A DNA stretch of 64,000 bases from Escherichia coli (GCF_003790525.1 NZ_CP033635.1), one strand, 5' to 3'; shown: positions 15,884 to 60,839, counted from the stretch's first letter. The notes: generated from the letters alone by a model not told the origin. Program-made: numbers and translations.

Positions 15884-15975
15884 TTTACATCGGTCTGCCG
15901 CAATGGTCACATCCTAAATGGGTGCGGTTGGGGATCACCAGCCTTGAAGAGTATGCCCGCCACTTTAACTGCGTG
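15880..15975 (+). pseudogene. yecE: yecE 5' fragment (first 32 codons) truncated by prophage insertion
   Basis: [32 protein letters not shown] then divergence into phage DNA; the remainder of yecE resumes at 60840. Confidence 0.75.
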
Positions 15976-16178
15976 ATACGGGATTTTTAAAAATCACTAA
16001 AGAACGCCCAAGAGCATGTGTTTTCTTTAGAATAATCAAAGCGTTGGATTGCCATGTCATATGAAAATCGGCAAAGTTCATATGTAACAAAGTGTCCCAA
16101 TCATGCCCCAAAATGCCCCACAACAAATATTTTTGCCCCATGCATGCCCCAAAAAATCACTTTCCCTCACCCTTGACA

Positions 16179-16222
16179 CTGTTTATCTATACAGTTAAAA
16201 ATAACACTGTATATAAACACAG
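16179..16222 (+). promoter_or_regulatory. promoter with two tandem LexA boxes upstream of the dinI-like gene
   Basis: TTGACA at 16173-16178 followed by CTGTTTATCTATACAG (16179-16194) and CTGTATATAAACACAG (16207-16222), both fitting CTGT-N8-ACAG. Confidence 0.6.
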
Positions 16223-16237
16223 TATAGAGGGACTTTT

Positions 16238-16486
16238 ATGCGTATTGAGATCTGTATCGCTAAAGAAAAATTCAGCAAAATGCCAAAAGGCTCTGTACCT
16301 GCTCTACAACAGGAAATGTCTCGCCGTATCAGAAAACGATATGACGATGTGGAGGTTATAGTAAAATCCGCCAGTAATGACGGACTGACCATTTTAAGAG
16401 CCGTAGATAAAGAAAACGCTCAGAAGTTCATACAGGAAACGCTGCAGGAAGTCTGGGAAACTGCTGATGACTGGTTTTTTCACTAA
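16238..16486 (+). CDS. DinI-like protein (prophage moron)
   Basis: 82-aa [31 protein letters not shown]...[16 protein letters not shown], DinI-family pattern with conserved C-terminal motif. Confidence 0.8.
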
Positions 16487-16868
16487 TCAGGACGTCAAAT
16501 AAATAACAACTGTAATTATTCTCTCCAAATTAACAATCTCTGTATACATACTCAGGCGTGTTCACGCATACAACACGCCTTTCTGATATTTAATTGTTTA
16601 CAGAAATATTGCCGAATAAAAATATAAACCATAGTCTTAAAAAATAATAATTCCACTAAAGCTATCCCAGAACAACCAGTACAAATAATAAAAGACATAT
16701 CACAGCAACACTCCACACTGACAGCGCAAAAATAAATGCCGCCTTTGTTATCTTCATATACAAGCAACCTGTCCTGATAATCACCAACTCATGTTTTATT
16801 CTTAACCATTCGTCACAAATACAACAAAAAATAACAGCAGCAGCACCGATATCACAATATAAGATACA

Positions 16869-17324
16869 TTATTCAACACCTGAATCCCCCGCCGCTTCTC
16901 TCCCCTTTATAAAACGCCCCTTCCGGAATCCAGACCGCTGCAGTGCACGACGAAGATGACCGTATACCGTCTTGTCATTCTGCCCCGTCTCTTCTGTAAT
17001 CTCCGCAATACTTAAACCTCTGTAATACCGGTTCAGTACCGCTCTGCGCTCTTCCAGCGTCAACACACCTCCGGCCGCTCTCAGATTCAGCATCGACTTA
17101 TTCAGAATACAGCAGGCCTCTCCGGTAAAAAGAATACGAACAATATCTGTATACTCATCATCACAGAATACAAAATAATATCTGAATGACCTGCCTGACT
17201 GCACCCTTCTTCTGTCTGATATGGCATCTTCTATATATCTGATTCGACTGCTTACGGTTCCAAATATCTCTCGCAGGGCTTTTTCAAAATAAATATCTCT
17301 CGTCGCCAGGATTATATCCAGCAT
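16869..17324 (-). CDS. putative LuxR/sigma-70 region 4-type HTH regulator (prophage moron)
   Basis: 151-aa; C-terminal LTLEERRAVLNRYYRGLSIAEITEETGQNDKTVYGHLRRALQ resembles a LuxR/GerE-type HTH. Confidence 0.45.
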   Translation of the reverse strand: MLDIILATRDIYFEKALREIFGTVSSRIRYIEDAISDRRRVQSGRSFRYYFVFCDDEYTDIVRILFTGEACCILNKSMLNLRAAGGVLTLEERRAVLNRYYRGLSIAEITEETGQNDKTVYGHLRRALQRSGFRKGRFIKGREAAGDSGVE

Positions 17325-17385
17325 CTCTGTACCTCATTATATCCCGGGGGACTCCCCCCGGGACAGATATCTAAATCCTGACCTG

Positions 17386-58086: not shown

Positions 58087-58716
58087 ATGGGCAAGATCAA
58101 AAACCCAGTTGTACTTATCCATAAGCGAGAAAATAGTGACTCCTACGTCGTTGCAATCACCTGCGGTAGCCAGAACTATCACGACGCCGTTCTGATGGCG
58201 TCGATGGAACTGGATATGAGTGACGATGATGTCGATACCTGGAGTAAAACCGGCTACTACATGGCTCAAGAAATCGAGCGACTTAAACAAGCGCTGTCCG
58301 CTGCGGAAAATAATTTGATTGATTCCGAATGCCTCGTCGCTGAATTAAGCAAAGCAAAGAATCACGCATATGGGCTGGTCGACACATACGACTGGCAACG
58401 TCAGCGTCTCCACGCAGCCACAGAGAAAGTCATCAAATGGTGCAGACAAGAAGCTGAACACCGTACCAGCGATCCAGAGAAATCAGAAAACTATGCGTGT
58501 GTTAAAGAACTACGCGACGCATTAACTTTTTGCAAAAGTTCTGAAGGCAGCAAGAAGAAAGGCCTGACCATCACCCTGCCCGATATCACATCAAAGGCAT
58601 TCTGGAGCGGTACCGGAAAAAACGCAAAATTCCATCCGGAAACCTATAAACGCTGGGTGAAAGAAGCTATCAAACGGGATTGTGTTATTGCCGGGATCGG
58701 CGTGCAGGTGAAATGA
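58087..58716 (+). CDS. hypothetical protein with central coiled-coil
   Basis: 209-aa ORF. Confidence 0.5.
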   Translation: MGKIKNPVVLIHKRENSDSYVVAITCGSQNYHDAVLMASMELDMSDDDVDTWSKTGYYMAQEIERLKQALSAAENNLIDSECLVAELSKAKNHAYGLVDTYDWQRQRLHAATEKVIKWCRQEAEHRTSDPEKSENYACVKELRDALTFCKSSEGSKKKGLTITLPDITSKAFWSGTGKNAKFHPETYKRWVKEAIKRDCVIAGIGVQVK

Positions 58717-58803
58717 TGAATAGGCCTGAAGCATTCACCGCAGTAGGAGTTGCAATAGCGGTGGCATTTATTCTGTATTCGCTTTTTCGCTGGGGATAAA
58801 AGA

Positions 58804-59046
58804 ATGTTCGCTCTGATTCAACGTGGTCAGATATACACCGATAGTGCTGGCTACCCGGTAAAAATTATTCGCTGCATAAACAACACTGTGTTGTACAGAA
58901 GAATGGATGGGCGAACACAGTCGGTAAAAATAAACGATTTTAATGAACTGTTTGAACGAATCGATCACCAGGAATACCGACAAATTCTGGCAGAAACAGA
59001 GCAGGAAGCTCATCTAAAAAAATTACGGGCCATGAAAAGGAAGTAA
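58804..59046 (+). CDS. hypothetical small protein (possibly DUF4222-like)
   Basis: 80-aa MFALIQRGQIYTDSAGYPVKIIRCINNTVLYRRMDG... Confidence 0.5.
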   Translation: MFALIQRGQIYTDSAGYPVKIIRCINNTVLYRRMDGRTQSVKINDFNELFERIDHQEYRQILAETEQEAHLKKLRAMKRK

Positions 59047-59204
59047 AGAATGAATAAAGCATTTGAACAATGGGTCCACCAGCGTTACGGCAATCGCTAT
59101 GACCTGACACGAGATGTTGACGGTTTCTACTGTCGTGAAATTGTGAAACGAATGTTTGAAGTGTGGTGCCACTGCCGTGGGCTGAGTGTTGTGTGAGGTA
59201 AAGC

Positions 59205-59441
59205 ATGGCCAATGTGATTCAACTGACTCCCAATGAATGGGTTTGTGAAAGCGTTCTAATCGCAATTACCGGGCTCAAACCAGGCACAATTCTTCGGGCC
59301 CGGAAAGAATGCTGGATGGTTGGAAGAGAGTATATTCACGTATCACCAGACGGTAATCCAAAGCCTTCCAGTGAATGTATGTATAACAGAAAAGCAATAG
59401 ATGCCTGGGTCGCTTCAATGAAAAACAAACAACCTGGGTGA
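59205..59441 (+). CDS. putative excisionase (Xis-like), by position and size
   Basis: 78-aa basic protein immediately upstream of int; ...VLIAITGLKPGTILRARKECWMVGREYIHVSPDG... Confidence 0.5.
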   Translation: MANVIQLTPNEWVCESVLIAITGLKPGTILRARKECWMVGREYIHVSPDGNPKPSSECMYNRKAIDAWVASMKNKQPG

Positions 59442-59496
59442 TTTAATGCCATGAAGTATGTAAGCTCGTATCGCTCTTGGGCGTCTGGAGGTATCA

Positions 59497-60810
59497 ATGG
59501 ATAAAGTCAAATATCCAACAGGCGTCGAAAACCACGGCGGCACATTACGCATCTGGTTTAATTTTAAAGGTAAACGTGTCAGGGAAAATCTTGGTGTCCC
59601 TGACACTGCCAAGAACAGGAAAATCGCCGGGGAACTGCGGACATCGGTATGTTTTGCCATCCGCACAGGAAGCTTTGATTATGCTGCACAGTTCCCTGAC
59701 TCCCCTAACCTTCAGGCTTTTGGGGTAAGTAAAAAAGAAATTACGGTGAAGGAACTTGAAGAAAAGTGGCTGGATCTGAAACGAATGGAGATCTCTGCAA
59801 ATGCATTCAATCGCTATGAATCCGTTGCAAGAACGATGGTTCCGAAAATTGGAGGCAGCAGACTGGTGTCATCGGTAACTAAAGAGGAATTGCTGTATAT
59901 CAGGAAAGATTTGCTGACCGGGTACCAGAATTCAACGAAAAACAAAGCAGCAGCAAAAGGACGGAGCGTCGTTACTGTAAATTATTACATGACGACAATC
60001 GCTGGAATGTTTCAGTTTGCTGCAGATCACGGTTACTTAGAAGCAAATCCCTTCCAGGGAATTAAGCCTCTTAAAAGAGCCAGGGCAGAGCCAGATCCGC
60101 TAACTCGTGACGAATTTATTCGCCTGATAGATGCTTGCCGACATCAGCAGACGAAAAACCTGTGGTCATTGGCTGTGTACACAGGAATGCGTCACGGTGA
60201 ACTGGTCTCCCTGGCCTGGGAAGATATCGATCTGAAAGCAGGAACTATTACTATCAGGCGCAATTATACGAAACTCGGTGAGTTCACTCTACCTAAAACT
60301 GAAGCAAGTACAAACAGGGTTGTGCATCTTATCCAGCCCGCTATCAGTGTCCTGAAAAATCAGGCTGAAATGACAAGACTGGGTAAGCAGCACCACATCA
60401 AGGTTCAACTACGTGAATATGGGCGTTCAGTGAATCATGAATGTACTTTCGTATTTAACCCCCAGGTGGTTAGAAAAAGCAAACAGGTCGGTTTTATCTA
60501 CAAGGTAGATTCTATTGGCGACTCATGGGAAACAGCCATTAAGCGTGCGGGCATCAGGCACCGGAAAGCATACCAGTCACGACACACTTATGCGTGCTGG
60601 TCATTATCTGCCGGAGCAAATCCAAGCTTCATTGCCAGCCAGATGGGCCATGCAAGTGCCCAGATGGTGTTCAATGTATACGGAGCATGGATGACTGACA
60701 GTAATGCAGAACAGATCGCAATGCTGAATCAGAAGCTGGCAGATTATGTCCCAATGATGTCCCATGGTCACCAAAGTGACACAAGAGACTTATTAAAATC
60801 AGTGGGTTAG
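59497..60810 (+). CDS. int: tyrosine-type site-specific integrase
   Basis: 437-aa; catalytic region ...RHTYACWSLSAGANPSFIASQMGHASAQMVFNVYGAW...; ends 19 bp before the attL core. Confidence 0.9.
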   Translation: MDKVKYPTGVENHGGTLRIWFNFKGKRVRENLGVPDTAKNRKIAGELRTSVCFAIRTGSFDYAAQFPDSPNLQAFGVSKKEITVKELEEKWLDLKRMEISANAFNRYESVARTMVPKIGGSRLVSSVTKEELLYIRKDLLTGYQNSTKNKAAAKGRSVVTVNYYMTTIAGMFQFAADHGYLEANPFQGIKPLKRARAEPDPLTRDEFIRLIDACRHQQTKNLWSLAVYTGMRHGELVSLAWEDIDLKAGTITIRRNYTKLGEFTLPKTEASTNRVVHLIQPAISVLKNQAEMTRLGKQHHIKVQLREYGRSVNHECTFVFNPQVVRKSKQVGFIYKVDSIGDSWETAIKRAGIRHRKAYQSRHTYACWSLSAGANPSFIASQMGHASAQMVFNVYGAWMTDSNAEQIAMLNQKLADYVPMMSHGHQSDTRDLLKSVG

Positions 60811-60839
60811 CCTTCAATACCCGTCATGTTAACTGTGTG

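Follow-up and report, generated by a model that had tools for sequence, protein, structure and literature searches.

A complete-looking lambdoid prophage integrated in yecE of Escherichia coli, with an IS5-family element between Q and the late genes

We examined a 64,000-nucleotide stretch of Escherichia coli DNA (GCF_003790525.1, NZ_CP033635.1; the window), in which the host gene yecE is interrupted by a 44,864 bp phage element. The element is very probably a temperate lambdoid siphophage that integrated in yecE through a phiP27-type integrase. Its layout is lambdoid and its morphogenetic genes are of the lambda type; in inverted orientation the gene order is int-xis, early left operon, cI-cro, replication, Q, lysis, cos-terminase, head, tail and tail fibre. 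The original prediction had described a complete-looking lambdoid prophage in yecE, and gene order, full-length genes, attachment (att) cores and the position of int all agree with that description. Prophages of this kind are already well known, and this is one more mosaic in a large family of yecE-targeting lambdoid prophages, with little weight beyond annotation; what is new here is an insertion of an IS5-family element and a more precise placement of the crossover point.

The interrupted gene begins with an ATG at 15880 and continues for 32 codons (15880..15975, plus strand), and its 3' remainder, codons 33–272, lies at 60840..61562 on the same strand, so the predicted 32-codon stub and 3' remainder with 44.9 kb of phage DNA between them are correct in coordinates and sequence. 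When 15880-15975 is joined to 60840-61562 an open 272-residue YecE reading frame is restored without interruption, and a joined flank construct of 997 nt is 99.9% identical to the intact yecD–yecE region of strain SMS-3-5 and others. The bacterial part of the left fragment most likely ends inside 15965-15971. Both flanks are gap-free relative to SMS-3-5, from 1 to 15975 at 99.99% identity (hexR-pyk-lpxM-mepM-znuACB-ruvBA-yebB-ruvC-yebC-nudB-aspS-yecD) and from 60817 to 64000 at 99.87% (yecN-cmoA-cmoB), and the flanks therefore contain no further insertion.

The joined yecE site is present in one piece in 4,901 of 5,426 complete E. coli genomes, and the int–yecE junction seen in the window occurs in 325 of them (about 6%), which shows that it is no chance pattern. 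The description of yecE as a phage integration site is well founded, as it is a documented hotspot for Shiga toxin (Stx) phages carrying Stx1a, Stx2a and Stx2d and for non-Stx phages (PMC8112680; PMC9751135). An alternative explanation for the split gene, that it reflects an assembly artefact or a chimeric join, is hardly credible: both junctions have a site-specific structure with the same core present twice and int 18 nt away, the same junctions are found in strain TUM1886 and in the 325 complete genomes, and the flanks are otherwise collinear with SMS-3-5.

The integrase gene (59497..60810, plus strand) encodes 437 residues with 97% identity to phiP27 Int, and the catalytic R, H and Y motifs can be read in its sequence. 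Its stop codon is separated from the right att core, which begins at 60829, by 18 nt, so that int adjoins the core as had been proposed. Immediately before it lies the gene for a 78-residue excisionase (59205..59441, plus strand), which is 97% identical to phiP27 Xis at equal length. Phage phiP27 (AJ298298, an Stx2e phage) has the same 11-bp yecE att at 18 nt from int, taking its att positions from the GenBank features of that record, and its P' arm is homologous to the left phage end in the window. The element thus shares with phiP27 a 437-residue Int with an adjacent Xis, and a TTAACTG(C/T)GTG sequence duplicated in yecE at the same distance from int. It differs from phiP27 elsewhere, as the latter has contractile-tail genes (sheath and baseplate), stx2e, and a DnaC/helicase replication module. 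The plaque-forming phage PhiR49_2 has the same int end as the window.

The two att cores are TTAACTGCGTG at 15965..15975 (junction B-O-P', the end distal to int) and TTAACTGTGTG at 60829..60839 (junction P-O-B', adjoining int), and they are the only two matches to TTAACTGYGTG in the whole window. Imperfect 11-bp cores had been predicted at these positions and both are there; the att homology itself extends past 11 bp and is less strict. Counting the phage P arm together with the core, 18 of 23 positions agree with yecE, in keeping with the 21-bp att described in O145:H28 for phages at yecE (PMC8112680). TTAACTG is the sole invariant part among the junctions examined. The single C/T mismatch, at core position 8, is synonymous at yecE codon 31 (TGC or TGT), and it is a common polymorphism of host yecE and not a sign of site decay. 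The empty site of SMS-3-5 reads TTAACTGTGTG, i.e. it has the T allele, which is found in at least 1,387 genomes with an intact yecE site. C occurs at the int-side junction of 139 lysogens, and T at that of others such as the window, TUM1886 and PhiR49_2; the far (left) junction has C in the window, TUM1886 and phiP27, although in phiP27, unlike the window, both att copies carry C.

The simplest reading of this distribution is that a C-type attP, as in phiP27, recombined with a T-type attB and that the exchange fell inside TTAACTG; 7 bp is the size of the overlap region of tyrosine recombinases. Because the nearest empty-site relatives carry T, we infer that the C at 15972 is derived from the phage, in which case the T at 60836 would be the host's own yecE allele, the attP allele regenerated by excision is predicted to be CATGTTAACTGCGTGATACGG, and the restored attB would have TGT. 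We had also considered that the int-side T, common to TUM1886 and PhiR49_2, is the phage allele, and dropped this since the SMS-3-5 empty site has T and 139 lysogens have C. One set of lysogens speaks against the simplest reading. T is present at the left junction of a related yecE prophage in eleven genomes, and in strain HM670 (NZ_CP082772.1), the only one of the eleven that was read, both cores have T and int is annotated as frameshifted; this copy is probably locked in. The existence of such T/T lysogens indicates that attP itself is polymorphic, and the placement of the crossover therefore depends on the argument from host lineage. Searches of IMG/VR viral contigs for an intact attP gave no match to a first exact pattern, and two matches to a second exact pattern that have unrelated flanks and are due to chance. 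An att site defined by the invariant 7-bp TTAACTG, with the C/T difference attributed to host polymorphism, helps in calling attL and attR at yecE.

The element is a mosaic of four modules: a phiP27-type int/xis/att module, a phi467-like immunity and helicase-primase module, a lambda/phage 21-type head-tail module, and accessory genes at the tail-fibre end. It had been described as lambda-like throughout, and this holds for the layout; it does not hold for replication (helicase and primase, not O/P), for N, or for the integration and immunity modules, which are phiP27-like and phi467-like. The exact mosaic is absent from the phage and E. coli collections that we compared, the best phage record covering 70% of the left half and 44% of the right half. 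The best match among RefSeq complete E. coli genomes is TUM1886, which covers 71-86% of segments, and its yecE prophage (NZ_CP128970.1, about 2235458-2280469) is the closest whole relative. The TUM1886 junctions are identical to those in the window (left C, right T), and identity is 99.5% for int, 100% for cI and 96-98% for the head-tail module. The two prophages also share the helicase, primase, Q, porin and endolysin genes, the HNH/NUMOD4 homing endonuclease, the cassette of dinI-like, sigma-like and YadA-like genes, and the same overall architecture. They differ in the holin and tRNA segment, in the small terminase and cos region, and over window positions 55991-57780; moreover, the TUM1886 adhesin is shorter, and TUM1886 has no IS5, its target site being empty.

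Given this mosaicism, and the description of tandem or nested integrations at yecE-like att sites (PMC8112680), the 44.9 kb could in principle comprise two elements sharing the site, such as a prophage with a satellite or an island in tandem. We regard this as very unlikely: the window has no att core beyond the two described, the integrase and cos are single, the replication, lysis and structural genes each form a single set arranged as in lambda, and TUM1886 has the same architecture between the same junctions.

The head-tail module resembles that of phage 21 (OL657228), with which it shares the order Nu1-A-W-B-C-Nu3-D-E-FI-FII-Z-U-V-G-T-H-M-L-K-I-J and about 94-96% DNA identity. Alignment with phage 21 or PhiR49_2 shows the morphogenetic genes to be full length throughout, small terminase to J, and a check of the essential phage genes for frameshifts and stop codons found none that is truncated or frameshifted relative to functional relatives. 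The products of W, B, C, Nu3, D, E, U, V, G, H, M, L, K and I align end-to-end with those of phage 21 at about 90-98% amino acid identity and equal lengths. Head genes E, D, C/Nu3, B (portal) and W occupy 33926..38686 (minus strand, 95-99% amino acid identity, same lengths), and V, U, Z, FII and FI lie at 31436..33874 (minus strand), where Z, FII and FI are divergent alleles (49-64% versus phage 21) of full length. Tail chaperones G and G-T are encoded at 30582..31420 (minus strand), with the slippery heptamer GGGAAAG at the end of G (about 31016-31022), as expected for the programmed G-T frameshift. The tape measure protein H (853 residues; 28028..30589, minus strand) is followed by tail tip genes I, K, L and M (25687..28031, minus strand; 94-98% amino acid identity, same lengths) and by J (21721..25626, minus strand), whose 1301-residue product scores 2292 bits against NF049904, the NCBIfam model of lambda TipJ with a cut-off of 1950, and aligns over its full length with the 1232-residue J of PhiR49_2. 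J has 1160 residues in phage 21, and the alignment with it breaks near residue 883-908, where about 140 extra residues precede a divergent C-terminal receptor-binding part. Beyond J are genes for a 556-residue side tail fibre with collagen-like repeats (19992..21662, minus strand) and for a 191-residue DUF4376 tail-fibre-associated protein (19402..19977, minus strand; phrog_1141), the latter named as such in TUM1886 by the Prokaryotic Genome Annotation Pipeline (PGAP).

At the packaging end, a cosN-like site, GGGCGTCGACCT, lies at 41292..41303 (minus strand); it has one mismatch to the lambda cohesive end, and the cosQ-side sequence likewise resembles that of lambda. The large terminase A (38670..40598, minus strand; 642 residues from an ATG start, MNISEQQ...) is 93% identical to that of phage 21. 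The small terminase gene (40570..41079, minus strand) encodes a divergent Nu1-type allele of 169 residues. As only residues 83-179 of phage 21 Nu1 align with it, we considered whether it is truncated, and rejected this because the allele, though divergent, is complete, with a GTG start and ribosome-binding site of its own and an end-to-end match to a PHROG profile (phrog_57, residues 1-169). What has been swapped is cos, Nu1 and the first codons of A, three parts that are expected to co-vary as a unit; GF60, LH50-c and Ch1 carry the same unit. Phage 21 (42.9 kb, compared with 44.9 kb for the window prophage) differs in its int/att (icd), immunity, O/P replication and Q modules, and within or beside the shared region in Nu1, cosB, the first codons of A, the FI/FII/Z alleles, the side tail fibre, and a J that is 140 residues shorter.

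The immunity and replication genes match those of the TUM1886 prophage and of the Stx2f phage phi467 (LN997803), in the latter with cI and cro 100% identical, helicase 95% and primase 99%; phi467 also shares the 97-residue and 285-residue proteins, and DNA identity to it is 93-97% over much of the early-left operon. Phage phi467 differs in having stx2f, a 276-residue antiterminator, HK97-type head genes and another integrase. The cI-type repressor (53351..54118, plus strand; a PGAP-style start would be at 53429) has a helix-turn-helix (HTH) domain and a peptidase S24 domain with the motifs GDSM and KRL. On the opposite strand (52716..53294, minus) are a Cro-like repressor (53022-53294) and the 97-residue protein (52716-53009), followed by a replication block (48379..52475, minus strand) that encodes the 285-residue protein, a toprim primase, a DEAD-box helicase, and an HNH/NUMOD4 homing endonuclease. 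The endonuclease gene (51855-52475) lies between the helicase gene, whose start it overlaps, and the 97-residue early gene that follows cro; phi467 does not have it at the corresponding position. The early-left operon (54266..59046, plus strand) includes genes for an HTH protein, an Ant-like anti-repressor (56534-57391) and a DUF4222 protein, together with small open reading frames (ORFs). All of the early genes have the lengths of their homologues, and so do cI, cro, the helicase and primase genes, and Q. The element yielded no homologue of N, the N position being occupied by an HTH protein (phrog_4836), and helicase and toprim primase genes take the place of O/P. The lack of N/nut and O/P as in lambda leaves membership of the lambdoid group intact, as these features are variable among lambdoid phages.

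The lysis genes comprise a 90-residue holin (44032..44304, minus strand; phrog_1350, E=3e-29, and 'phage holin family protein' in the PGAP annotation of relatives), a 177-residue endolysin with an N-terminal hydrophobic segment (42841..43374, minus strand), and a spanin Rz (42383..42859, minus strand) with an embedded Rz1 (42442-42624); holin, endolysin and Rz/Rz1 are the same lengths as in relatives. As no minus-strand ORF abuts the endolysin gene, a missing holin was considered, and rejected in view of the holin gene 650 bp upstream. The gap of about 650 bp between the two genes (43375-44031) holds an ORF on the opposite strand that is N-terminally truncated (43498..43875, plus strand; phrog_1853, profile positions 57-158 of 159) and is likely a recombination scar, judging from its partial profile match. 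The holin–endolysin block is 99% conserved in the prophages of GF60, LH50-c and Ch1.

Further upstream are two tRNA genes (44720..44873, minus strand), tRNA-Arg(UCU) and a tRNA with a CAU anticodon, and an Rfam scan at the gathering threshold found these two tRNAs and nothing else. The CAU-anticodon tRNA (44798-44873) is called tRNA-Met by ARAGORN and tRNA-Ile by PGAP in relatives; PGAP calls its partner Arg or Lys, depending on the relative. The interval from the tRNAs (44720-44873) to the holin gene (44304), which is where Stx phages have their toxin genes, lacks any ORF as long as stxA; no stx is listed in the PGAP annotation of the 99%-identical block in relatives, and the ORF at 44032-44304 is the holin and not StxB. 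The element is therefore not an Stx-converting phage, as it lacks stxAB. It shows that toxin-free versions of a backbone common to Stx2e and Stx2f phages are in circulation, here in a host background near SMS-3-5.

The original prediction did not mention an IS5-family insertion sequence of 1196 bp (45328..46523, plus strand) that lies between Q and the lysis genes. The element ends in 16-bp terminal inverted repeats, GGAAGGTGCGAA..., encodes a transposase of 326 residues (45396-46376; 367 bits against the NF033581 cut-off of 140), and is flanked by a perfect TTAG target duplication at 45324-45327 and 46524-46527. A length of about 1.2 kb, 16-bp repeats, a DDE transposase of about 326 residues and a 4-bp YTAR duplication all identify it as a member of the IS5 family, and since TUM1886 has the uninterrupted target it arrived by simple transposition. 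The insertion is intergenic, 144 bp upstream of an intact gene for a 368-residue porin of the OmpF/OmpC/NmpC type (46672..47778, plus strand), and it is placed between Q (47957..48379, minus strand; 140 residues, phrog_79) and all of the late genes. A similar arrangement is present in the Q-nmpC::IS5-lysis region of phage 434B and DLP12 (OL657227), where an opposite-strand porin gene and an IS5 of the same orientation likewise separate Q from the lysis genes, and where bor and Rz have 95% DNA identity to those in the window. In 434B, however, the IS5 breaks the porin gene after codon 346, and the porins are about 66% identical at the DNA level. The IS5 copy in the window is 91% identical to the K-12 IS5 carried by 434B and is a distinct isoform.

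By analogy with Q82/DLP12-type phages, we infer that late transcription would start just downstream of Q and cross the porin gene in the antisense direction and then IS5. The following sequence of events can be proposed for the element as a whole. The phiP27-type tyrosine integrase very probably inserted the phage at yecE codons 29-32 by site-specific recombination, with strand exchange within the 7-bp identity TTAACTG, and the LexA-like (HTH plus S24) cI would repress the prophage, such that SOS induction is expected. On induction, Xis and Int would excise the prophage, the helicase-primase module would replicate the excised phage, and Q would drive minus-strand late transcription, which would run antisense through the porin gene, cross IS5 and the two tRNA genes, and reach first the lysis genes and after them the lambda/21-type genes for packaging, head and tail; DNA would be packaged from the lambda-like cos.

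Whether this cycle can be completed depends in part on IS5, which must be weighed in any claim of inducibility. On the sequence evidence as a whole we lean slightly towards an inducible prophage. The competing explanation, to which we give a real, minority chance, is that this is a cryptic, immobilized prophage that looks complete and yields no particles, either through polarity of IS5 or through point or regulatory defects. Several observations favour this explanation and weigh against inducibility. Lying between Q and every late gene, IS5 may exert a polar effect on the late operon; the truncated ORF shows that the lysis cassette was once rearranged; the exact mosaic was not found among sequenced phages; related yecE prophages decay, as in HM670; and comparisons of gene length are blind to missense or regulatory defects. 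In addition, a consensus promoter scan downstream of Q found no convincing pR' site, so the proposed late transcription across IS5 rests on analogy. Set against these are the absence of any gene that is truncated or frameshifted relative to functional relatives, the intergenic position of IS5, and the intact state of cos, the G-T slippery site, the cI S24 motifs and int/xis. Furthermore, IS5 need not be disabling, because 434B is a viable phage with an IS5 in the same interval and orientation.

IS5 is known to switch genes at other E. coli promoters, and the copy here could conceivably turn the porin gene on or off while attenuating late read-through, so that the prophage is kept for its conversion genes and its lytic output is damped; we consider this improbable. 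The conversion genes meant in such a scheme are those for the porin, an Eib-like adhesin, Bor and DinI.

The cargo of the prophage consists of the porin, Bor (42058..42351, plus strand), a YadA-like adhesin, a DinI-like protein and the two tRNAs, and part of it is clustered at the tail-fibre end. Directly downstream of the tail-fibre genes is the gene for a YadA-like trimeric autotransporter adhesin of 538 residues (17386..19002, minus strand), of which residues 416-537 form the YadA-type anchor. The adhesin may belong to the Eib-like group of immunoglobulin-binding trimeric autotransporters: source annotations give the name 'immunoglobulin-binding protein' to some of its relatives (about 80% identity over 51-62% of the query). 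A comparison with solved Eib structures gave no match at E<=0.001. The length of the adhesin varies from 365 to 557 residues among relatives, which suggests a variable stalk. Next to it are genes for a 151-residue small protein with a sigma-70 region-4-like HTH (16869..17324, minus strand), which has weak profile matches and is named by PGAP in relatives, and for the 82-residue DinI-like protein (16238..16486, plus strand; phrog_189, E=2.8e-27, with this PGAP name in TUM1886). Two LexA-box-like sites (CTGT-N8-ACAG; 16179..16222) are just upstream of the dinI-like gene. This cassette (16179-19002) is common to TUM1886 and many other genomes. A PADLOC screen of ten unassigned ORFs of the element returned the homing endonuclease and generic HTH matches only, and no defence system.

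A minor feature of the right junction concerns the annotation of yecE itself. In TUM1886 and other lysogens, PGAP calls a 256-residue 'yecE/DUF72' coding sequence that starts within the 3' end of int (equivalent to window positions 60792-61562). The yecE frame is open across the junction, with the P arm encoding ...RHVNCV where yecE has ...RHFNCV. The window offers no start codon (ATG, GTG or TTG) in the yecE frame ahead of the GTG at 60837, which makes expression of a hybrid YecE from this junction doubtful.

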